This document shows, one piece after another, positions 11,508 to 29,399 of a DNA stretch of 64,000 bases; the stretch's first letter is position 1; every line of letters begins with the position of its first letter. The notes below the pieces were generated by a model. It was not told the DNA's origin. It searched no databases and saw nothing but the letters and a program-made list of their open reading frames with translations. Source of the DNA: Bacillota bacterium (lineage in GTDB: Bacteria > Bacillota > Clostridia > Lachnospirales > Bianqueaceae). The stretch covers positions 5,269 to 69,268 of the forward strand of contig JAFRUE010000016.1 of the NCBI GenBank assembly GCA_017441925.1. The letters are read 5' to 3'. Position numbers and translations under genes: made by a program.

Positions 11508-12701
11508 TTAATGGCACCTCTTGCAAGGTTCATATCCTCTCTCAACTGCTTCATCATAAGAAATCGGAATACAACTGTTCTTAAGGCTAGAACACCATGC
11601 TTCATGATATTTAGAGCCTGTGTTCGTTATATATACGATTCTGCCTTCCAATGGTTCCTGTGCCGGTCCTTTCTCCGGAGCGCCTGTGTCTTCTGAACCA
11701 GTTTCATACACTATAAGGGTTTCCCCTTCCTCCTTCACAGGATCAGGCTCTGAAGCAGGAGTCGGTTCTTCTGTTACTACTTCTTTAGTTTCTTCAATTG
11801 GTTCTTCTATCGGTTCCTCCATCACTTCTTTTGTCGGTTCTTCTATTACTTCTTCAGATGCTTCTTCCGCCTGCTTTTCTGTCGTCTCCAGTTCATATAC
11901 AGATTCCACAGATGATTCCGAAACAGCTGCAATCTCTGCAGTCGATTCTTCTGTAATAATTACTGCCTGTTCTGGTTGATAAGATGCTTCCTGAGAACTT
12001 TCTATCAAGATAGAATTCTCGTTTGAAATTACATCTTCTGTTTGAATGGATCTCTCTATATTTTCACTGTTTTCAACTACAATAAGCTCAAAGGATTCTT
12101 CTTTTGATTCTTTTGCAGAGCTATTTTCCAACAAAACAGCTGGAGTTATTCCTCTCATCATAGAATCCTCTGTATTCTCTCCGGAAGATTCCGAAACTGC
12201 TGTACTATCGACAGATTGAGTTGTCGATTTATCCTGACTCGGATAAAAAGCGATAGCTGCTACTAATAATATAACGCATATAATAATTATTGATGATCTG
12301 TTATTTATACTGTCTGGCAAATAACCCATGATACGATTTCTGAGAGGTGACACCAATAAAGCCAGCAATGCAAAAGCTAGAATAGGTATTATTGCACCAG
12401 ATGATAGTATAGATAAAGCGGAAACAGCAAAAAAGCCACAACCAATCCAACTCCAGATTTTTTTAGCTTTCAACCTATCTCTTTGAGATCGTTCAGTTTT
12501 TACCGGCCGGTCCTCAGGAACGGTTGTACTTACATACGACAATCCTGTACCCGGAATTCCTGCTGATTTTGTTTTCTTGCCGCTTGAATGCATTGTGTAA
12601 TGCAAGCCTTTAGTTCCAATTGTAGTACTGATACCTTTTTTACCGATATTCAGCTTCGCTTCTTTACCAATCTTTATATTTCTCTTAAATCGCAGTCCCA
12701 T
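11508..12701 (-). CDS. DUF4236 domain membrane protein with acidic low-complexity region and C-terminal Cys/His motif
   Basis: N-terminus MGLRFKRNIKIGKEAKLNIGKKGISTTIGTKGLHY...GIPGTGLSY matches the DUF4236 signature. Two TM segments follow, then a Glu/Pro/Thr-rich repeat region. C-terminus is GSKYHEAWCSSL...GYEPCKRCH. About 35% GC. Confidence 0.75.
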   Translation of the reverse strand: MGLRFKRNIKIGKEAKLNIGKKGISTTIGTKGLHYTMHSSGKKTKSAGIPGTGLSYVSTTVPEDRPVKTERSQRDRLKAKKIWSWIGCGFFAVSALSILSSGAIIPILAFALLALLVSPLRNRIMGYLPDSINNRSSIIIICVILLVAAIAFYPSQDKSTTQSVDSTAVSESSGENTEDSMMRGITPAVLLENSSAKESKEESFELIVVENSENIERSIQTEDVISNENSILIESSQEASYQPEQAVIITEESTAEIAAVSESSVESVYELETTEKQAEEASEEVIEEPTKEVMEEPIEEPIEETKEVVTEEPTPASEPDPVKEEGETLIVYETGSEDTGAPEKGPAQEPLEGRIVYITNTGSKYHEAWCSSLKNSCIPISYDEAVERGYEPCKRCH

Positions 12702-12769
12702 GTCAACGTCTCCTAATACTATGCCTTAATACTTTACGTTTCCCAAAGCTTTACTGTTTATCAGTTCTT

Positions 12770-13501
12770 TTAAACATTATCTGGACTCTCTTTTTTCTCC
12801 AGTTCATTCATATATCCGGCAGTTATTATACCTGCCGGCAAAGCAACTATTGCAATTCCAAACACTGACGACACCATGGTTACAATTCTGCCGAGTACAG
12901 AAACTGGATAAATATCTCCATAACCTACCGTAGTCAACGAAACCGTCGCCCAGTAAACAGCATCAAAGAAAGTATCAAAAGAGTCTGGCTCAACATTAAA
13001 AATCAAAAGTGCCGAAACAAGTATATACCCACCGGCCAACACGCAGACAGCAATCAAGGAATTCTTCGATGATCGGAGTACATTTCCTATTATTGCAAAG
13101 CTTTTCGAATACCTCATGGTTTTGAAAGCCCGAACAACGCGTAATGCACGAATCATTCGTAATACACGAAGCAGTTTAAAACTGCTGCTAACAATAGTTA
13201 AAGACGGCAATATAGATAGCAGATCTATGATCGCCATCAGTGAAAAAGGATATCTTATAAATGAAAAAACACTGTTATTTTCAAATTTATAATCTGCTGT
13301 AATCCACCGCAGCAAATAATCAATTATAAATACTACTACAGCAGCTTTATCTATAATTAGGAAGAAGTTATTCTCTATTTTAAAAGCCAGCGGAATCAGA
13401 CTTAAAACGATCATAACTATCATGAAAACATCATATACTTTACTCAACCGATCATTTCCGGCTGACTTTTCAATGATCTCAAAAATACGTTTTCGGCTCA
13501 T
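12770..13501 (-). CDS. voltage-gated-type potassium channel (6-TM ion transport protein)
   Basis: S4-like LLRVLRMIRALRVVRAFKTMR and selectivity filter TTVGYGD. 243 aa, low GC. Confidence 0.88.
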   Translation of the reverse strand: MSRKRIFEIIEKSAGNDRLSKVYDVFMIVMIVLSLIPLAFKIENNFFLIIDKAAVVVFIIDYLLRWITADYKFENNSVFSFIRYPFSLMAIIDLLSILPSLTIVSSSFKLLRVLRMIRALRVVRAFKTMRYSKSFAIIGNVLRSSKNSLIAVCVLAGGYILVSALLIFNVEPDSFDTFFDAVYWATVSLTTVGYGDIYPVSVLGRIVTMVSSVFGIAIVALPAGIITAGYMNELEKKESPDNV

Positions 13502-14029
13502 CTTATCATAGCTCCTTCGTTTGTGTCAAAAAAGGCTTTTCTGATACATTTATAATATGAAAATGGAGAAAGGTTTTTCTCTCTTTATTCGGTTCAAATA
13601 TATATTTCTACTGAACTCAAGCTCTTCCAACTCACCTATGCAAGAATTTATATCTGAATACTATTCTGATACTTCTCACAGTCATCCTTTTGTCATTACT
13701 ATATTTTGTAATTATAGTATACCACAATTATACAATAAAATACGCAGTAATTCTGAATCGACTTCACTATTTTTTAGGAAAAATCAAGTAATGGTAAATA
13801 CACTACTATGAGATTTTCTATACAGATATACTTTCTATCAATAGAAAGTCCAGTGAAAAGCAGTTTTTTGAGACTTGACGAAAAACCTGATTTATAATTA
13901 TAATAACTAGAAGATATGATAATGTCTATCATGCTACCAAAGATAATCTTTTACGTAATAACTGGTATGAACTGTATAGCACGACAGGGAAACACCTGTC
14001 ATAAATCATTTCAATAGGAGGTCATCATT

Positions 14030-20410: not shown

Positions 20411-20842
20411 ATGATGATTTCGACACGCGGACGTTATGCCATTCGGATGATGATGGATCTCGCGGAGAACCAGGGGGATTGTTATGTATCCCTTAAGGAT
20501 ATCGCCGCGCGGCAGGATATTTCAAAAAAGTACCTCGAACAGATCATTCCTCTGCTGAACCAGGCTGATCTGACCAGAACCTGCCGCGGTTCGCAGGGAG
20601 GCTACAGGCTCTCCCGTCCCGCCAAGGAATATACTCTCCTCGAGATCCTGCAGGCAACAGAGACCAGTATAGCTCCTGTTACCTGCCTGGAATATGAGGA
20701 GAATACATGCCCGCGCAGTGCGGACTGCCCGACCCTGCCCGTATGGCAGGGGCTCAACCAGGTCGTGCGGGAATATCTCGCCGGCATCACACTTCAGGAT
20801 GTAATCGACGATAACGTTCCGGATCCGCCCAAGCCTCTTTAA
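20411..20842 (+). CDS. Rrf2 family transcriptional regulator (IscR/SufR-like, Cys-containing)
   Basis: MMISTRGRYAIRMMMDLA, a wHTH, and a CLEYEENTCPRSADCP three-Cys cluster motif. Confidence 0.9.
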   Translation: MMISTRGRYAIRMMMDLAENQGDCYVSLKDIAARQDISKKYLEQIIPLLNQADLTRTCRGSQGGYRLSRPAKEYTLLEILQATETSIAPVTCLEYEENTCPRSADCPTLPVWQGLNQVVREYLAGITLQDVIDDNVPDPPKPL

Positions 20843-20964: not shown

Positions 20965-22896
20965 ATGAAAAAGAAAACAACGAAGACCCTGTCACTCATG
21001 CTTTGCATCTGCCTGCTTCTGGTCTGCTGCTCCTGCATCAGTCCGGATAAAGAGGCCGATGCCGGCAGCTCCGTTCCCAAGGAGGAATCCGCTCCAGGCG
21101 AATCTTCCTCTGAGGCTTCCGCCAAGCCGGAAGAATCCTCTGAGGCCAGCTCCGGGAGTGATACTGTTCCCGCCGAACCGGACGCGGATACGGCTATGAG
21201 CAATTTCGTCGCAAAGCTTGACGCCGGCAATTATGTGATCGATCATGAGGATTCCGTCAAAACGACGGTCTTCTCTCCTGAAAGGATCTTCTTTACTGAG
21301 GATAACGATTCATCTTCTTCCATCAATCTCGGATATGTAACGCTTGATAACGAGACATTCCTGGTAGAACTGAACGACATCAGCGACGTCGAATTCGTCG
21401 CGCCCGGCAATGCGATCGAAGCGCTGGGATCCATTCTTCCCAACGACTGGTACGCATACAGCGGCGAGAATATGTTCAACCTGTTCTACAACAACGTCGA
21501 TAATCCGCTTGAATTCACCTCCAATGACGAGGCTGTAAAGCTGACCCTGCTCCGGCTCGGCGGGTACAGTGAACAGGCGGTTTCCGTTATGGAAGAAGTC
21601 CATATGCTGCTTGACGCGGAGGATCCCTCATCTGTACGTTTCACCGCGGTCATGGGCCAGTACGGCATGATCAAGTACGACGATCTTGATGTAACGCTGC
21701 AGTTCGGCGTAGGTGAGAACGATCCGCGTATCGATAAATGGTTCGCGAATCCGATCTATCCTCCGACAAGGACCGCCTGGACTTGGAACGATGTTGCCGA
21801 CCTGGATCTCGTGTTCGAGAGAGGATACGGTGAAGACGCTGTCCCGTTCCCCGAATTTGCAAGCTATGCTCTGATTTTTGATCCTCATGCGTACGAACAG
21901 CAGACGATCGTCCGGATCATGGACGCTCACGGGACCGAGGCGGACCTGGAAGCATACAAAGCCGCGCTTCTCGCCAAAGGCTATGAAGCTGTAGAGGCAA
22001 CCTTCTCCGACGGCAGCACCGACACTGTTTACCGTCTCCTCTTAAGAGAAGCTTATCACAGCTATGCCGAGCTCTATCCGTACTATGACAACGGCTTTGT
22101 TCTGGAAGGCGGACTGTATTACGACAATCCTGTTTATGAAGGCCTGCCCGCGATCAGCGATGCTGTTGCAAAGAACGGATTCCCGGAGCTTGCGGAAACG
22201 GATCTCTTCAAAGAATGGAAAGCGACAGATACTGCCGCATCGAGAAGCGAAGGCTGGGCGTACTTCTTCGATTATGACCTTCTCATCTCGATGACGCTCG
22301 AATATGATGAGGAGAATGAAGCGGACGCCGTCGCGTATTTTGAAGAGTATTCTGACAGACTTGCGGAAGCCGGTTTCCATTCCGAGTATGTCCCGGAAGA
22401 GATCGGCGGCAAATATGAATCATCGAATGACTTTACATCTTTCAGATACGCGTTCAATGAAGACGGTACCGTATCCGTAGAGTTCAAGAAAGAAAAGAGT
22501 CTTACTCCTGATGAAGTCAAGGCGCTCCTTGCCGAACACGGCATCCCGGTCGCAGACATCCACGGAGATATCGCATGCAGGGATCAGACCCGCTACCGCT
22601 ACATCATCGGAGAATTCAAAGGGATCTTCCTCTTCGTCTACCAGCCGTTTGACACCAGAGAAGAAGCCGAGAGCTTCCTCGACGACTATACCGCTGTTCT
22701 GGATGAAGAAGGATATCTGCCCATGGATCCTCAGAAGCTCGGTTCTCAGAGAACATTCCTTTTCTTCAACGAAGATCTTGGAAAGTATGTCGCATTTGAT
22801 CTGTTCGATGACGGCGACGGCGCGACCGCGGCATTTGAGTTTGTTTCGATCGAACCGGATGAGGAGACCACTCTGCAGAGCGTACTTCGTCATTAA
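20965..22896 (+). CDS. acidic lipoprotein of unknown function
   Basis: Signal peptide with lipobox (LLLVCCSC), Ser/Glu-rich linker, 643 aa, good RBS. I recognise no family. Confidence 0.7.
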   Translation: MKKKTTKTLSLMLCICLLLVCCSCISPDKEADAGSSVPKEESAPGESSSEASAKPEESSEASSGSDTVPAEPDADTAMSNFVAKLDAGNYVIDHEDSVKTTVFSPERIFFTEDNDSSSSINLGYVTLDNETFLVELNDISDVEFVAPGNAIEALGSILPNDWYAYSGENMFNLFYNNVDNPLEFTSNDEAVKLTLLRLGGYSEQAVSVMEEVHMLLDAEDPSSVRFTAVMGQYGMIKYDDLDVTLQFGVGENDPRIDKWFANPIYPPTRTAWTWNDVADLDLVFERGYGEDAVPFPEFASYALIFDPHAYEQQTIVRIMDAHGTEADLEAYKAALLAKGYEAVEATFSDGSTDTVYRLLLREAYHSYAELYPYYDNGFVLEGGLYYDNPVYEGLPAISDAVAKNGFPELAETDLFKEWKATDTAASRSEGWAYFFDYDLLISMTLEYDEENEADAVAYFEEYSDRLAEAGFHSEYVPEEIGGKYESSNDFTSFRYAFNEDGTVSVEFKKEKSLTPDEVKALLAEHGIPVADIHGDIACRDQTRYRYIIGEFKGIFLFVYQPFDTREEAESFLDDYTAVLDEEGYLPMDPQKLGSQRTFLFFNEDLGKYVAFDLFDDGDGATAAFEFVSIEPDEETTLQSVLRH

Positions 22897-22904
22897 GTCA
22901 TACA

Positions 22905-22941
22905 GAGAGCAGGAGCCGGACCATCTCCCCCTGCTCTTTTC
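22905..22941 (+). terminator. intrinsic terminator after the lipoprotein gene
   Basis: GAGCAGG...CCTGCTC stem followed by TTTT. Confidence 0.6.
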
Positions 22942-22977
22942 TTCCTGATTGCAGCATGAAGCCGGAGGTATAATGAA

Positions 22978-24558
22978 ATGAGTAATGTTATGAACAGTAT
23001 AGCCGTAAGCATCACGCTGTCCGGCAGGATCGATTCCAACAACGCAGCCGAGACCGAAAAAGGCATACTGGCGCAGCTGGAGGGACATAAGAATGCAGCC
23101 GTCATCCTGGACGCTTCTGCGCTCGAGTATATCTCAAGCGCCGGTCTGCGTGTGATCCTGCGTGTGAAGAAGTCTTATCCGGATCTTACGATCAAGGGTG
23201 TCAGCCCGGAGGTCTATGAGATTCTTGATATGACCGGCTTTACCGAAATGATGACAGTGGAAAAAGCCTACCGCGTCGTTTCAGTGGAAGGCTGCGAGGA
23301 GATCGGACGCGGCGCCAACGGTACGATCTACCGGATCGACCAGGACAACGTTGTAAAGGTCTACAACAATGCTGACGCTCTCGAGGATATCCAGCATGAG
23401 CGTGAAGTCGCGAAACTGGCGCTGATTCTGGGTATTCCCACAGCAATCTCTTATGACGTCGTACGCGTCGGCGAGAGCTATGGTTCCGTATTTGAGCTCC
23501 TCAATGCCAAAGCTTTCTCCAACATCCTGGCAAAAGAGCCGGAGAAGATGGACTGGTGCGTGCAGGAATACGTTGAATTGCTCAAGAAGATCCATTCCAC
23601 GCTGGTCCCGGCCGGGAAACTGCCCGACATGAAGGAGACAGCGCTTTCCTGGGCCGCTTTCATGCAGGATTATCTGCCGGAAGAAGCCAGCCGCAAGCTG
23701 CTTGCCCTCGTGCAGGCGGTACCGCATGACGATCACATGATCCACGGTGATTACCATACAAAGAACGTAATGCTGCAGAATGACGAAGTCCTGCTGATCG
23801 ATATGGACACGCTGGCTGTCGGACATCCGGTCTTTGAACTGGCTTCCATGTACAATTCCTTTGTCGGCTACTCTGAAGTGTATCATGATACGATTCTTGG
23901 ATTCCAGGGCTTTGACTATGAGACCGGCCGCGCTTTCTGGCGCAAATCCCTCTCCGCCTATCTCGGCACATCCAATGAGAAGAAAATCCAGGAGGTCGCG
24001 GATAAGGCCCGTGTCATCGGCTATACGCGTATGATCCGCCGATCCATCCGCCGTAAGGGACTGGAGACCGCGGAAGGCCGCGCCGAGATCGAGTACTGGA
24101 AGAGCGAGCTGCTCGCGCTGCTCGAGCATGTCGATACGCTTCTCTTCTCCCGCAATGAGATCGAGGTCGAAGCAGACATCCAGAATCTCCCGGAGGTACA
24201 GGCTTTTGTTGAGACGCATCTGGAAAATGTCGAATGCCCTCCGAAAGCACAGATGCAGATCGGCCTCGCTGTTGAAGAGATCTTCGTAAATATCGCGAAT
24301 TATGCTTACACTCCGGGCAGGGGGAACGCCATTATCCGCGTGGAAGTTTCGGAAGAGCCCGTTGCCGTTACGATCACGTTCCTGGATCACGGCATCCCCT
24401 ATGATCCGCTTGCCAAAACGGATCCCGACGTATCCCTCTCCGCACAGGAACGCGATATCGGCGGTCTTGGCATCTTCCTCGCGAAAAAGACCATGGACGA
24501 CATCAGCTACGAGTATAAAAACGGTCAGAACATTCTGACGCTTAAAAAACAGCTCTGA
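22978..24558 (+). CDS. three-domain protein: STAS (anti-sigma antagonist-like) + APH/protein-kinase-like phosphotransferase + SpoIIAB-like GHKL ATPase
   Basis: aa 1-97 STAS (LEYISSAGLRVIL). The middle domain has a Gly-rich loop GRGANGTIY, VVKVY, HGDYHTKNVML and LIDMDT. The C-terminal domain has N-box EEIFVNIANYA, DHGIPYDP and GGLGIFLAKK. Confidence 0.8.
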   Translation: MSNVMNSIAVSITLSGRIDSNNAAETEKGILAQLEGHKNAAVILDASALEYISSAGLRVILRVKKSYPDLTIKGVSPEVYEILDMTGFTEMMTVEKAYRVVSVEGCEEIGRGANGTIYRIDQDNVVKVYNNADALEDIQHEREVAKLALILGIPTAISYDVVRVGESYGSVFELLNAKAFSNILAKEPEKMDWCVQEYVELLKKIHSTLVPAGKLPDMKETALSWAAFMQDYLPEEASRKLLALVQAVPHDDHMIHGDYHTKNVMLQNDEVLLIDMDTLAVGHPVFELASMYNSFVGYSEVYHDTILGFQGFDYETGRAFWRKSLSAYLGTSNEKKIQEVADKARVIGYTRMIRRSIRRKGLETAEGRAEIEYWKSELLALLEHVDTLLFSRNEIEVEADIQNLPEVQAFVETHLENVECPPKAQMQIGLAVEEIFVNIANYAYTPGRGNAIIRVEVSEEPVAVTITFLDHGIPYDPLAKTDPDVSLSAQERDIGGLGIFLAKKTMDDISYEYKNGQNILTLKKQL

Positions 24559-24581
24559 TCGAGACAAGAAGGAGAATTGCA

Positions 24582-24878
24582 ATGAACATTGAACGTGTCG
24601 TAAACGGTACAGCGCTGACTGTAGCGGTATCCGGAAGACTGGATACCGTTACCGCTCCCGAACTGGAAACATCTCTCGGAGATTCTCTGAAAGGCATTAC
24701 GGACCTGACCTTTGATTTTGCCGAACTGGAGTATATCTCTTCGGCGGGTCTGCGCGTGCTGCTCTCCACCCAGAAGATCATGAACAGCCAGGGAAGCATG
24801 AAGATCATTCACGCAAACGAGGCCATTAAGGATATTTTCGAAGTAACCGGCTTTGTCGACATCATGACGATCGAGTAA
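24582..24878 (+). CDS. STAS domain protein (anti-sigma factor antagonist, SpoIIAA/RsbV-like)
   Basis: 98 aa. LEYISSAGLRVLL carries the conserved phosphorylatable Ser context. RBS GAAGGAG. Confidence 0.88.
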   Translation: MNIERVVNGTALTVAVSGRLDTVTAPELETSLGDSLKGITDLTFDFAELEYISSAGLRVLLSTQKIMNSQGSMKIIHANEAIKDIFEVTGFVDIMTIE

Positions 24879-24902: not shown

Positions 24903-24940
24903 AAAAGGGCTTTCAGCAGATGCTGAAAGCCCTTCTTTAT
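24903..24940. terminator. bidirectional intrinsic terminator
   Basis: AAGGGCTTTCAGC (24905-24917) pairs with GCTGAAAGCCCTT (24922-24934). Flanked by an A-run and a T-rich run, between convergent genes. Confidence 0.75.
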
Positions 24941-26230: not shown

Positions 26231-26950
26231 TCAGCGCAGTTTCCTCGTCAGTGCGGCAAGAACCGCCCGCGGTGTATTCTCTTCTGCCTCGATCGTGTAT
26301 ACGGCTTCATGAATATGCGGCAGATAGTGCGCGTCCGAATCAAAGATCACGTTGCAGTTCTCCAGATACGGATTCTGCTCCCGGACCTTGTGCAATGTCG
26401 AGGGCGAAGCCAGCTCAAAACACTTGAATTTGCTGTCCGGCGGCACGAATCCGAGGTTGCTCATGACGCTTGTCGTGGATTTATCGATATGCGCGGGGAT
26501 CATCACGCCGTTATACTGCTCTGCCAGATCATAGACCTCATCAAAGCTGATATCCGTCGCATTGATCAGCAGATATGGTTCTGTCCCCGCCGGCTCGTCA
26601 TTAAGATCCCGCAGGACCTGCTCGCCGAAGAATTCCGGTCTGTTCGGCACTTTGATCAGGTGTTCATACACATACGCGTCAAAACGAAGCGCGTCTGCAA
26701 GCTCGGCAAAAAGACACAGGACATGGACCTCTTCCTGTGTCGTCAGTTCCATCCCGGGAATCGCCGTGATCCCGTACTGCGCGGCCTGGTGAAGCAGCGC
26801 AGGACAGTTGCGAGACGTATTGTGATCCGTCAGCGCGATCACATTCAGGCCTTTGATATAGGCCATTCCCGCGATATTTGCCGGTGTCATGTCGTCATCT
26901 CCGCAGGGAGACAGGCATGAATGCAGATGCAGATCGTAATACAGTTCCAT
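26231..26950 (-). CDS. PHP domain protein (polymerase/histidinol-phosphatase-like metal hydrolase)
   Basis: YDLHLHSCLSPCG...ALTDHN N-terminal PHP motifs. 239 aa. Confidence 0.85.
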   Translation of the reverse strand: MELYYDLHLHSCLSPCGDDDMTPANIAGMAYIKGLNVIALTDHNTSRNCPALLHQAAQYGITAIPGMELTTQEEVHVLCLFAELADALRFDAYVYEHLIKVPNRPEFFGEQVLRDLNDEPAGTEPYLLINATDISFDEVYDLAEQYNGVMIPAHIDKSTTSVMSNLGFVPPDSKFKCFELASPSTLHKVREQNPYLENCNVIFDSDAHYLPHIHEAVYTIEAEENTPRAVLAALTRKLR

Positions 26951-26973
26951 CTTACAGTGCCGGAATACCTCTC

Positions 26974-27309
26974 TTATGCATCCAGGAGCGCCTGGATCTG
27001 CATGGCAGTCTCAAAGATCGGCTGATCCGTCGCAAAGATCGTAAAGCCCTGCGTCTCAGCCCTCGCGATACCGACCGCGTCCATCTGCGCGCCTTCCGCG
27101 AGCACGATACAGGCCATATCCGTCAGACTCAGAACCGCTAGCGAATTGATATTGCCCATGACCGTGACCCAGGCCGCGTCGGCCTTGCCCCGGCCCATGA
27201 CGACACTCAGAAGATCGCAGCAGAATACGCCGCTGATCTCTCTGTCCGTATCGTCTCCGGCACACACGACCTTAAAGATCCCCTTGTCCGCCAGTTCCCT
27301 GATCGTCAT
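26974..27309 (-). CDS. DRTGG domain protein
   Basis: The start MTIRE... parallels the paralog at 29399. The CDLLSVVMGRGK...VMGNINSLAV pattern is typical of DRTGG. The ATG at 27309 overlaps the end of the upstream gene by 38 nt. Confidence 0.75.
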   Translation of the reverse strand: MTIRELADKGIFKVVCAGDDTDREISGVFCCDLLSVVMGRGKADAAWVTVMGNINSLAVLSLTDMACIVLAEGAQMDAVGIARAETQGFTIFATDQPIFETAMQIQALLDA

Positions 27310-28609
27310 TCTTGTTTTCCTTCCTGTTCTTACGCACATCCAGGAACGACATCTCGTCCGATATGTGCTGGATATACTCTTTCAGAATGTAAATACAGTC
27401 GCTCTCCTTCGCGATGCCCCTGACGATATCCTCTGCCAGCGCACGGCAGCTCGGTGCTCCGCAGCTTCCGCAGTCCATGCCGGGGAAACGCTCCGTCAGC
27501 TCATCGACCTTGCGCATCATGGCGATGCTTTCCTTCAGTGTGCTGCCCAGCTTAAAGACCGGCTCATATTCGATCTCTCGGTTCCAGAAGCCGAGATCCT
27601 CAGGGACCTCGTGGTTCTTGGCGACCGGCAGATACTTGTTCAGCCGTTTCAGCTTGACCCGCGCGACATACGGATTCTCAACAGCCAGGACGCCGCCCAC
27701 GCATCCGCCCATGCAGGCGTTCAGCTCAATGAACTTAAGATTCGTGAATTTCTGGTCTTCCAGATCCTCCAGGACCTTGATCACGTTCTCAATACCGTCA
27801 GCCGCCAGATAATCATCCGTCAGCAGGCCTCCGGCTTCTCCGCCGCTGTTGCCCCAGCCGATGCCGATCCGGCCGGCTTCCGCAAGTTCTTCAGGCTGTT
27901 CCGCTGATTCCGGCATATACGGCAGAAGCAGCGGATACACGTCCTTCATCGCAAGAATCTCATCTACGTCGCAGTGATCAACGGTCAGCGGATACTTGCA
28001 GGAAGACACTTTGGCGGGACAGGGCGAGATGAAGAAGATGCCGATCTTCTCGGACGGCAGGCCTGTATCCTCCATGGCTTTGCGCCGCGCCATGGTCGCC
28101 GCAAGCTCGACCGGAGCTTCCAGCGGCAGCAGCTGGGGGATCAGGTTAGGGAACCGTACGCGGATCAGCTTAACGACTGAAGGGCAGGCTGTGCTGATCA
28201 GCGGCCACTGTTCCGGATGCGCGTCCACATAATCACGCGAAATATGAGAGATGATCTCTGCCGCCGCTCCGACCTCGTGTACAGCGTCAAATCCCATCTT
28301 CCTGAGCGCAGTCAGTACGATATTGGTATCGTCCAGATTGTTGAACTGTCCGTATAAGGACGGAGCCGGCAGCGCGACCGTGTACTCATAGTTCTTCATA
28401 TGCTCGACCGGATCATAGGTCGCGATCTTTGCATGATGCGGGCAGACACGGATACACTGACCGCAGTCAATGCAGTATTCTTTGGTGATCACGGCTTTAC
28501 CGTCCCGTACGCGGATCGCTCCCGTCGGACAACGTTTGATACAGTTCGTGCAGCCTTTGCACGCGTCCCTGTCCAGACGCACTGAGTTTTCGAATTTACC
28601 GTTGCTCAT
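27272..28609 (-). CDS. [FeFe]-hydrogenase-like Fe-S protein (putative sensory HydS-type, no PAS domain)
   Basis: Two ferredoxin-type CxxCxxCxxxCP motifs. H-domain-like motifs STACPS (L1 variant), SPCPAK (L2) and ELNACMGGCVGG (L3). C-terminal CGSCGAPSC cluster motif. Confidence 0.8.
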   Translation of the reverse strand: MSNGKFENSVRLDRDACKGCTNCIKRCPTGAIRVRDGKAVITKEYCIDCGQCIRVCPHHAKIATYDPVEHMKNYEYTVALPAPSLYGQFNNLDDTNIVLTALRKMGFDAVHEVGAAAEIISHISRDYVDAHPEQWPLISTACPSVVKLIRVRFPNLIPQLLPLEAPVELAATMARRKAMEDTGLPSEKIGIFFISPCPAKVSSCKYPLTVDHCDVDEILAMKDVYPLLLPYMPESAEQPEELAEAGRIGIGWGNSGGEAGGLLTDDYLAADGIENVIKVLEDLEDQKFTNLKFIELNACMGGCVGGVLAVENPYVARVKLKRLNKYLPVAKNHEVPEDLGFWNREIEYEPVFKLGSTLKESIAMMRKVDELTERFPGMDCGSCGAPSCRALAEDIVRGIAKESDCIYILKEYIQHISDEMSFLDVRKNRKENKNDDQGTGGQGDL

Positions 28610-28629
28610 AATGCCTCCGTATTAAACGG

Positions 28630-29052
28630 TCAGAAACGGACTTTCATATGTACTGTCGTTCCGACCCCTACTTCCGATTCAATGGAAAACTCATCGGAGT
28701 ATTTCTTCATGTTGGGCAGACCCATGCCCGCTCCGAATCCGAGTCCGCGCACATCTTCCGGCGCGGTGGAGAAACCTGCCTGCATCGCCTGCTCGATGTC
28801 CGCGATGCCGGGGCCGTGATCCTCCAGCAGCATATCCACATCTTCCGGGGTAATCTCTACCGTAATCTGTCCCCCGTGTGCATGGATCACCATATTGATC
28901 TCGCCTTCATACATGCTGATCGCGACTTTGCGGATCGCTTCCGGCGGGATCCCCATCTTTCTCAGCTTTTGCTTGATATCGCTCGAAGCCTCGCCGGCCC
29001 TGGTAAAATCATCGCCGGGAACGTCATATTTCAGTACGATCGCGTCGCTCAT
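28630..29052 (-). CDS. stand-alone GHKL ATPase (anti-sigma regulatory factor/Ser kinase-like)
   Basis: 140 aa. N-box EGEINMVIHA, DHGPGI, GFGAGMGLPNM. Confidence 0.8.
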   Translation of the reverse strand: MSDAIVLKYDVPGDDFTRAGEASSDIKQKLRKMGIPPEAIRKVAISMYEGEINMVIHAHGGQITVEITPEDVDMLLEDHGPGIADIEQAMQAGFSTAPEDVRGLGFGAGMGLPNMKKYSDEFSIESEVGVGTTVHMKVRF

Positions 29053-29399
29053 ATCCGGCTTCCTCCCCGCAGGCCGTTCTCATACAGCAGGCCGCAGGAG
29101 GGGAACATCGCGAGCTTTGTGCTCAGGATGACGAGATCGTTCTCCCTGGCAAGCTCTATCATCGTGTCGGTGGGAACTTTGCTGCGTACAAAAACAAGGC
29201 ATACGATATCCATCATCTCCGCGGTACGGATCGCCTGCGGATTGCATAGTCCTGTCAGAAGGACCGCCTGATCCTTAACAAACGCGAGCACGTCGCTCAT
29301 CAGGTCGCTGCCGCAGGCCGTATGGACTTCGCGGTCCAGCAGCTCTTCTCCGCAGCAGACCTCGGCGTCCAGGATTTTCTGTATTTCTCTGATTGTCAT
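29049..29399 (-). CDS. DRTGG domain protein
   Basis: 116 aa. GSDLMSDVLAF...LLTGLCNPQAIRTA. ATGA overlap with the downstream ATPase gene. Confidence 0.78.
   Translation of the reverse strand: MTIREIQKILDAEVCCGEELLDREVHTACGSDLMSDVLAFVKDQAVLLTGLCNPQAIRTAEMMDIVCLVFVRSKVPTDTMIELARENDLVILSTKLAMFPSCGLLYENGLRGGSRI

Follow-up and report, generated by a model that had tools for sequence, protein, structure and literature searches.

We found that a two-gene unit in a 64,000-nucleotide (nt) stretch of DNA from a Bacillota bacterium of the family Bianqueaceae (GenBank assembly GCA_017441925.1, contig JAFRUE010000016.1, positions 5,269 to 69,268 of the forward strand; here called the window) encodes what is, on balance, probably a partner switch without a sigma factor, with an APH-type kinase tethered to a STAS domain as its output. 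The first gene, P0001 (window positions 22978 to 24558, + strand), encodes a 526-amino-acid (aa) fusion of a STAS domain, an APH-fold kinase domain, and a HATPase_c_2 domain. The second gene, P0002 (24582 to 24878, +), encodes a free STAS protein of 98 aa that resembles RsbV and SpoIIAA and carries the same YISSAGLRVLL motif as the fusion. The textbook mechanism by which Bacillota control sigma factors is partner switching. To our knowledge, partner switches without a sigma factor are understood in only a few cases, SiaABCD and SypE/SypA. For the system described here, we established the domain identities, the residue conservation, the gene linkage, and the fusion history.

A preliminary description, made from the letters of the window, had reported open reading frames (ORFs) of 526 and 98 aa, quoted motifs from each, and read the larger protein as a fusion of STAS, APH- or kinase-like, and SpoIIAB-like domains. 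We found both ORFs exactly at the positions above, all of the quoted motifs in the two proteins (LEYISSAGLRVIL, GRGANGTIY, VVKVY, HGDYHTKNVML, and LIDMDT in P0001; LEYISSAGLRVLL in P0002), and all three domains above their Pfam cutoffs. The STAS domain (23005 to 23265, +; residues 10 to 96) matched with an E value of 3e-13 (49.9 bits versus a cutoff of 22.6). The APH/ChoK-fold kinase domain (23293 to 23967, +; residues ~106 to 330) matched Pfam APH over residues 106 to 320 (E value, 9e-18; 65.4 bits versus 23.2). It is followed by a helical C-terminal extension of the STAS-APH core (23968 to 24147, +; residues ~331 to 390), with AlphaFold2 helices at residues 334 to 358 and 365 to 384. The RsbW/SpoIIAB-type GHKL Ser-kinase domain (24169 to 24549, +; residues 398 to 524) matched HATPase_c_2 with an E value of 2e-22 (80.2 bits versus 27.4), and its NCBIfam matches to RsbW, SpoIIAB, and RsbA were all below threshold. 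P0002 matched Pfam STAS with an E value of 8e-14 and the NCBIfam family ant_ant_sig (anti-sigma factor antagonist) with 68.8 bits, above the cutoff of 53.45.

We found that the residues expected of working domains are conserved. The APH domain contains the G-loop GRGANG, Lys127, Glu141, HGDYHTKN (His256, Asp258, and Asn263), and IDMD (Asp275), and the GHKL domain contains an N box (E433-E434...N438), a G1 box (D470-x-G472), and a G2 box (G496-x-G498). Across 95 sequences, down to 32% identity, S54, G56, G87, H256, D258, N263, and D275 were invariant, while S53, L57, R58, G110, G112, K127, and E141 were conserved at 90% or more. The GHKL residues E433, E434, N438, D470, G472, G496, and G498 were invariant in 45 of 45 three-domain proteins. 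In the free STAS family (60 sequences), L-x-YISSAGLRVLL is conserved at 90% or more. Because these residues are conserved, all three modules, catalytic and acceptor, look functional as far as sequence can tell. Ser54, in YISSAGLR, is aligned with the leading Ser of the DSSGL motif in SpoIIAA (1th8_B), a residue that we take to be the serine phosphorylated in SpoIIAA, and is the putative phospho-acceptor. The Ser motif is conserved in both the STAS domain of the fusion (cis-STAS) and the free STAS, in keeping with the earlier suggestion that there are two potential phospho-acceptor STAS domains.

The AlphaFold2 model of P0001, built from the 95-sequence alignment, had a predicted local distance difference test (pLDDT) score of 93.1 and a predicted template modeling (pTM) score of 0.83. 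The pTM score is high for three domains and suggests that they hold a defined mutual arrangement. When the APH domain of the model was compared with the PDB using Foldseek, the best matches were Cph (viomycin kinase), APH(3')-Ia, APH(2''), APH(4)-Ia, methylthioribose (MTR) kinase, and choline/ethanolamine kinase, with E values of about 2e-9 and a probability of 1.0. The closest folds were not Hanks protein kinases. The domain thus shares the fold and catalytic motifs of the APH/ChoK small-molecule kinases, but it is only 12 to 20% identical to the solved enzymes. In a sequence search of the PDB, STAS alone gave a significant match, and the APH and GHKL domains had none below an E value of 0.05. 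The nearest NCBIfam family, TIGR02172, matched residues 107 to 327 with an E value of 2e-30, and the score of 106.5 bits fell short of its cutoff of 228.2. Resistance equivalogs were missed by far (APH_6, 16.9 versus 325 bits; APH_3p, 13.9 versus 205; capreo_Cph, 15.6 versus 390), and we found no evidence in these comparisons for a resistance enzyme. Judging from the hidden Markov model (HMM) and Foldseek searches, which both support the kinase fold proposed earlier for the middle domain, we concluded that this domain is a bona fide APH/ChoK-fold kinase that is far from every named resistance enzyme.

The family is very large. With a word-indexed search, we recovered over 8000 clusters (90% identity) that carry the identical three Pfam domains, and the three-domain members all come from metagenome-assembled genomes (MAGs) or metagenomes and bear generic names only. 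Since more than 8000 clusters share this architecture, the fusion is no frameshift or assembly artifact. An exhaustive HMMER search of 1.84 billion representatives gave 889 clusters at 50% identity with E values below 1e-30. The majority of the best HMMER matches were proteins of ~385 to 400 aa that cover residues ~10 to 390, namely, STAS, APH, and the helical tail with no GHKL domain. When the two-domain protein P0143 was used as the query, we again found at least 8000 clusters. By these alignments, the conserved core of the family is a STAS-APH protein of ~390 aa. We searched the literature and found no paper on the STAS-APH architecture or on TIGR02172. The components and logic of the system are already known, but the architecture and the proposed enzyme output are, as far as our literature search shows, new.

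On contigs representing one genome per species, the best 80 loci all encode the three-domain form, at 59 to 78% identity, and come from ruminant-gut MAGs. Their labels include Oscillospiraceae, Ruminococcaceae, Lachnospiraceae, Mogibacterium/Anaerovoracaceae, Solobacterium/Erysipelotrichaceae, Christensenella, and Acutalibacteraceae. The family is patchy, with a true STAS-APH gene in 2 of 401 genomes of an even, phylum-wide sample. An order-level sample had such a gene in about 18 of 301 genomes, some with up to four two-domain paralogues, and there the three-domain form was confined to the family to which the window belongs (6 genomes). At loci L104 to L106 and L108 (Oscillospirales genomes G639, G618, and G538), three or four two-domain paralogues lie in tandem or close together, and the arrays are interleaved with secreted proteins of ~410 to 500 aa and a conserved protein of ~455 aa.

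We found the RsbW-like domain in several fusion states: joined to the STAS-APH core, joined to the PP2C, or free. Two-domain STAS-APH genes lie directly upstream or downstream of a gene for a PP2C-HATPase_c_2 fusion at L096, L098, L113, and L118 to L121 (the L121 protein also carries a Cache sensor), and they lie beside a stand-alone HATPase_c_2 gene of ~135 aa at L101 and L111. In P0130, the RsbW-like kinase domain is at the N terminus of the core. A maximum-likelihood tree of the core placed the C-terminal GHKL fusions in one clade (Shimodaira-Hasegawa-like approximate likelihood ratio test support, 99), P0130 elsewhere, and the other fusions scattered. Because the tree separates the C-terminal clade from P0130, the RsbW-like domain was joined to the core at least twice independently. 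The GHKL domain of the fusion is 52 to 61% identical to PP2C-fused or stand-alone domains from the same family or genus. RsbW-like and SpoIIE-type genes were present in 12 of 12 STAS-APH genomes tested, often as adjacent pairs. This shuffling and co-occurrence across genomes argue more strongly than any of our other evidence that the RsbW-like kinase and the PP2C have the tethered STAS as a substrate or partner.

Genes for the other parts of a switch are common around the fusion. We clustered all same-strand ORFs within 6 kb of the fusion in the best 80 loci. The most frequent neighbor was a free STAS of ~99 aa (56 of 80 loci), followed by a membrane protein of ~585 aa with HAMP and SpoIIE PP2C domains (38 of 80) and a PHP protein of ~290 aa (37 of 80). 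Less frequent were DUF218 (14), a VanX-like M15 dipeptidase (13), a MatE transporter with a C-terminal HATPase_c_2 domain (12), and a D-2-hydroxyacid dehydrogenase (10). Purpose-built HMMs, applied to the same distance in 81 three-domain loci, found the free STAS in 58, a SpoIIE-type PP2C in 44, and the PHP protein in 43; a STAS or PP2C was present in 31 of the 36 loci that have at least 6 kb on both sides. Pfam-annotated contigs gave the same picture as the clustered ORFs. The usual gene orders are STAS-PP2C-fusion-PHP-DUF218 (e.g., L016 and L090) and STAS-fusion-PHP, and the order of the window, with the STAS after the fusion, is a minority arrangement. Thus, the search by architecture that had been recommended for learning the spread and neighbors of the fusion returned a very large family with a free STAS, a HAMP-PP2C, and a phosphohydrolase conserved nearby. 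The idea that PHP replaces PP2C was ruled out, as both co-occur in many loci. PADLOC anti-phage models gave 0 matches for the fusion, the free STAS, or the PP2C, PHP, and HD_4 neighbors.

We take the APH-fold kinase to be the output because it is the sole non-signaling catalytic domain that is always present. Its neighbors include phosphohydrolases. The PHP gene lies 0 to 35 nt downstream of the fusion in many three-domain loci, and a gene for an HD_4 protein of 188 to 200 aa is directly upstream of STAS-APH at L119 to L121 (three of four operons read). The core is itself fused to such enzymes, as STAS-APH-PHP (P0131) and HD_4-STAS-APH (P0192), and it is also fused to HD-CE, a PolyA_pol-type nucleotidyltransferase, and a Na/H exchanger. 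Among solved structures, the TrpH-like partner PHP is closest to 3e0f, RNase AM (7ug9), and 2yb1, which is, we assume, the Cv1693 pAp phosphatase, and its NCBIfam matches to RNase RNM and to nucleoside-bisphosphate phosphatase were both below threshold. The HD_4 protein resembles small-alarmone hydrolases, with Lmo0812, Rel/SpoT hydrolase domains, MESH1, and a (p)ppApp hydrolase as its best relatives. The PHP and HD_4 families act on nucleotide 3'(2')-(pyro)phosphates, and this led us to the idea of a kinase for nucleotide ribose hydroxyls. According to this idea, which we hold to be rather doubtful, the STAS-gated APH domain would phosphorylate the ribose hydroxyl of a nucleotide or RNA end and yield an alarmone-like 3'(2')-phosphorylated messenger that HD_4 or PHP would degrade, the two forming a second-messenger synthase-hydrolase pair controlled by a partner switch.

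In the model that we favor, the core is an intact APH/ChoK-fold kinase with a rigidly tethered STAS domain, and the C-terminal RsbW-like domain would phosphorylate Ser54 of the cis-STAS, the equivalent Ser of the free STAS, or both. The membrane PP2C, encoded on contig C1 in this genome, would provide the input by stripping the phosphate in response to an extracytoplasmic or membrane signal. Unphosphorylated free STAS would then compete with the cis-STAS for the RsbW-like domain, so that the STAS-APH unit in cis would take the place held by the sigma factor in Bacillus. The phosphorylation or binding state of the cis-STAS would gate the APH-fold kinase, which would act on a small molecule, and the co-encoded PHP (TrpH-like) or HD_4 enzyme would probably remove the phosphate that the kinase adds. 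We infer the phosphorylation, competition, and gating steps by analogy with RsbV/RsbW, Rv1364c, and SiaABCD. The preliminary description had counted two kinase-type domains and had left the input and output of the module open. Both domains are present, but they are not equivalent, one being the predicted STAS kinase of the switch and the other having a small-molecule-kinase fold. The input is now narrowed to a likely candidate, the membrane HAMP-PP2C, and the output to another, the APH-fold kinase.

Several observations weigh against this model. The neighbor counts were drawn from related rumen MAGs and are not phylogenetically independent. The STAS-APH-PHP fusion P0131 groups within the three-domain clade and could have arisen when a deletion joined it to the PHP gene downstream, so it is weaker as independent evidence. 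In the multi-paralogue genomes G639, G618, G538, and G586, STAS-APH arrays have no PP2C or RsbW-like gene within 8 kb. Finally, a genome of the same genus as that of the window, G588, has an intact cluster of STAS, PP2C, stand-alone RsbW-like kinase, PHP, VanX-like, and DUF218 genes (L123, C7:76000-94000) that contains no APH gene. Because of this cluster, the switch and the PHP can exist without an adjoining APH unit.

RsbW-like domains were also found outside the fusion, on transporters and beside a second free STAS. The MatE-HATPase_c_2 genes include one at L049:8194-9948 and, in the genome of the window, one on contig C4 (C4:428838-430580, - strand), with a fragment at C8:290625-290927. 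The GHKL domain of the MatE fusions has an intact N box, a G1 box with Cys instead of Gly, and a reduced G2 box. Sodium:dicarboxylate symporter (SDF) proteins of ~535 aa adjoin STAS-APH operons at L064:11899-13512, L119:3820-5418, and L120:3805-5418. Their N-terminal extension of ~125 aa aligns over its full length with the RsbW-like kinase domain (hhalign probability, 92%; E value, 6e-7) and is a degenerate HATPase_c_2-like domain that has lost its ATP-binding boxes. The second free STAS (C8:133250-133549, -; 99 aa, 54% identical to P0002) is followed by a gene for a conserved 192-aa protein with no Pfam match (the pair spans C8:132658-133549, -). The model of this protein is of moderate confidence (pLDDT, 68.6; pTM, 0.69) and its fold matches exclusively anti-sigma kinases, namely, SpoIIAB, UsfX, SiaB, and RsbW (probability, 1.0; template modeling score, 0.64 to 0.75). 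It lacks the N-box Asn. A profile comparison of its family with the kinase domain of the fusion gave an hhalign probability of 1.3%, so that the kinship is visible by fold search only. Homologues adjoin STAS genes in 7 of the 80 related loci. The model suggests that the 192-aa protein is likely an RsbW-fold pseudokinase. The RsbW-fold domains of the MatE, SDF, and C8 proteins could be docking sites for free STAS proteins, and if so, the network may also regulate transporters.

These domains fit a different arrangement, in which the APH domain would be a ligand sensor, and hence the input, and the output would pass through the free STAS as it docks on the RsbW-like (pseudo)kinase domains of the MatE or SDF transporters or on the C8 protein, thereby regulating transport or the envelope. 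The altered G1 and G2 boxes of the MatE fusions, the degenerate SDF extensions, the C8 protein, a Na/H exchanger-STAS-APH fusion (P0265), and the recurrence of VanX-like, DUF218, and MOP/MATE-type genes nearby are what such an arrangement would predict. We consider it unlikely. Lys127, Glu141, Asp258, Asn263, and Asp275 show little or no variation across hundreds of clusters at 50% identity, which favors catalysis over mere binding, and transporter fusions occur in a minority of loci only. Transporter control is also compatible with an enzyme output and does not exclude one. Alternatively, the APH domain could be a protein kinase of the tethered STAS, the free STAS, or both, and the fusion would integrate two STAS kinases. 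The short STAS-APH linker conserved in every member, the SS-x-GLR motif that is invariant even where no RsbW-like gene is adjacent, and marginal HMM matches to RIO1, Bud32, CotS/CotI, and TCAD9 point in this direction. However, the closest folds are small-molecule kinases, and the APH unit is repeatedly paired or fused with phosphohydrolases of the small-molecule type. An RsbW-like kinase is fused or adjacent in many loci, and each of the 12 genomes tested encodes one, so that a second STAS kinase would have no gap to fill. We therefore regard this role as quite improbable.

The system might instead be a classical anti-sigma module in which an unlinked sigma factor is captured by the RsbW-like domain or the C8 protein, with the APH domain in an accessory role. 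Eight genes of the sigma-70 family are present in the genome, two of them for proteins of about 250 aa, and the best fold matches of the C8 protein include UsfX, which is a non-kinase anti-sigma factor, along with SpoIIAB and RsbW. In this genome, no sigma gene adjoins the fusion, either free STAS gene, or the PP2C. In the flanks (6 to 10 kb) of about 109 loci, sigma-like ORFs occurred in 3, none of them adjacent and all of differing types, and the HD_4/STAS-APH/STAS/PP2C-HATPase_c_2 operons are self-contained. Taken together, these data make an anti-sigma module very improbable. The preliminary description had also considered a standard sigma-B-type module with partners elsewhere. Part of this was borne out, in that a recognizable RsbU/RsbV/RsbW-type set is present with its PP2C relocated, but no sigma factor was linked to it anywhere.

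The sigma-less switch that we favor has the parts of the Bacillus subtilis RsbU/RsbP-RsbV-RsbW-sigmaB and SpoIIE-SpoIIAA-SpoIIAB-sigmaF modules: a STAS with the phospho-Ser position, a HATPase_c_2 GHKL Ser kinase with intact boxes, and a SpoIIE-family PP2C. Unlike those modules, it has no linked sigma factor, its kinase is fused to a STAS and an APH-fold enzyme, each system contains two or three STAS domains, and in the genome of the window the PP2C is on another contig. Previous work showed that Pseudomonas aeruginosa SiaABCD uses a membrane HAMP-PP2C, the RsbW-like kinase SiaB, and a switch protein to regulate an enzyme and not a sigma factor (PMC8457831, PMC7647112). SiaA is the best NCBIfam match, below threshold, of the PP2C neighboring the fusions. 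The output of SiaABCD, however, is a diguanylate cyclase bound in trans by SiaC, whereas here a canonical STAS is covalently fused to an APH-fold kinase. In Mycobacterium tuberculosis Rv1364c, a PAS-PP2C-kinase-STAS polypeptide, the kinase domain phosphorylates the STAS (PMC9138534). An RsbW-like kinase and its STAS substrate thus share one chain there, as we propose for P0001, and intramolecular phosphorylation has precedent. Rv1364c differs in that it carries a PP2C, has no enzyme output, and feeds sigma F, whereas in our system the PP2C is a protein of its own and the fusion has an inserted APH-fold kinase. In Vibrio fischeri SypE/SypA, also a sigma-less partner switch, one protein fuses a kinase and a PP2C that act on a STAS protein (PMC10120452). 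This resembles the operons of PP2C-HATPase_c_2 plus STAS-APH in the present family, except that SypE includes a receiver domain and that SypA consists of a STAS without a fused enzyme.

The family matters for its size and its wiring. More than 8000 clusters of the three-domain form, and as many or more of the two-domain form, join a switch domain to a small-molecule-type kinase in rumen and gut bacteria, and an output on the switch's own polypeptide would make the system unusually tractable. Knowing the substrate of the kinase might bring to light a previously unseen regulated metabolite or nucleotide signal in the dominant fiber-degrading Clostridia. STAS domains are known to work with transporters in SulP and MlaB, and the RsbW-like pseudokinase domains on MatE and SDF proteins suggest that the free STAS regulates transport, which would extend this theme.

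In the genome of the window, the parts of the system are scattered. The preliminary description had noted no PP2C within 10 kb and had proposed a genome-wide search for orphan partners. All PP2C matches are on contigs C1 and C6 only, and the single strong SpoIIE-type PP2C, at C1:126750-128570, is such an orphan; it has two hydrophobic segments around a loop of ~220 aa, followed by the SpoIIE domain, and is 52% identical to the PP2Cs that adjoin fusions in relatives. The absence of a sigma factor within 10 kb, also noted earlier, held as well: the nearest sigma-like genes on this contig are more than 49 kb away, outside the window. Contig C1 further carries a VanX-like gene (C1:123979-124635) and an orthologue of the ~290-aa PHP gene (C1:142410-143246; 62% identity). 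The genome as a whole encodes only three STAS domains and lacks an operon like spoIIAA-spoIIAB-sigF. Because G588, of the same genus, keeps the parts together, we read the arrangement in the window as a lineage-specific scattering of an ancestral cluster. The stand-alone RsbW-like kinase of G588 is 61% identical to the C-terminal domain of the fusion.

Within the window, the fusion gene has a ribosome-binding site (RBS), GGAGG (22964 to 22968, +), 9 nt ahead of its ATG, and P0002 is preceded by AAGGAG, both read from the sequence. An intrinsic-terminator hairpin (24905 to 24934, +) with a 13-bp stem and a T-rich tail sits between P0002 and a convergent major facilitator superfamily (MFS) gene. 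Because an RBS precedes each gene and the hairpin closes the pair, the fusion and the free STAS form a two-gene unit. We found no convincing promoter in the 81-nt gap between the upstream lipoprotein gene and the fusion gene. Right after the lipoprotein stop codon, at 22905 to 22950, there is an 8-bp stem, AGAGCAGG...CCTGCTCT, with a 15-nt loop and a T-rich tail that the terminator scan did not call. This stem may be a weak terminator that splits the lipoprotein gene from the fusion gene.

On the 5' side of the fusion are genes for a nitroreductase, a Mem_trans permease, sufCBDSU, an Rrf2 regulator (20411 to 20842), and a 643-aa lipoprotein without a Pfam domain (20965 to 22896). The Rrf2 gene contradicts the earlier statement that no DNA-binding output lies within 10 kb. 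We take it to belong with the adjacent suf operon, and it is not a conserved neighbor of the fusion. On the 3' side, on the opposite strand, are the MFS gene, a cassette (26231 to 29399, -) of PHP, HydS-like sensory hydrogenase, 140-aa HATPase_c_2, and DRTGG genes, and HydA and HydB, to which the cassette is 3'. Among the best 80 loci, none of the flanking genes of the window is a conserved neighbor of the fusion, except that the lipoprotein gene is syntenic inside the genus. The lipoprotein was ruled out as a partner, with 0 homologues in those loci and synteny in the genus only. The PHP gene of the window (26231 to 26950) was ruled out as the partner PHP, since it is part of the hydrogenase-sensor cluster and matched one related locus only. 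The HATPase_c_2 gene (28630 to 29052), in the same cluster 3.7 kb downstream of the unit, is unrelated to the fusion system. Both the GHKL and the PHP genes of the cassette belong to other subfamilies, are not conserved beside the fusion, and were ruled out as partners of the STAS system. In G588, an MFS gene 57% identical to that of the window lies 3 kb from the L123 cluster. Elsewhere in the window, a stretch at 11508 to 13811 with a low guanine-plus-cytosine content (35% versus about 55%) encodes a DUF4236 protein and an Ion_trans/Ion_trans_2 channel and looks like a small foreign insertion.

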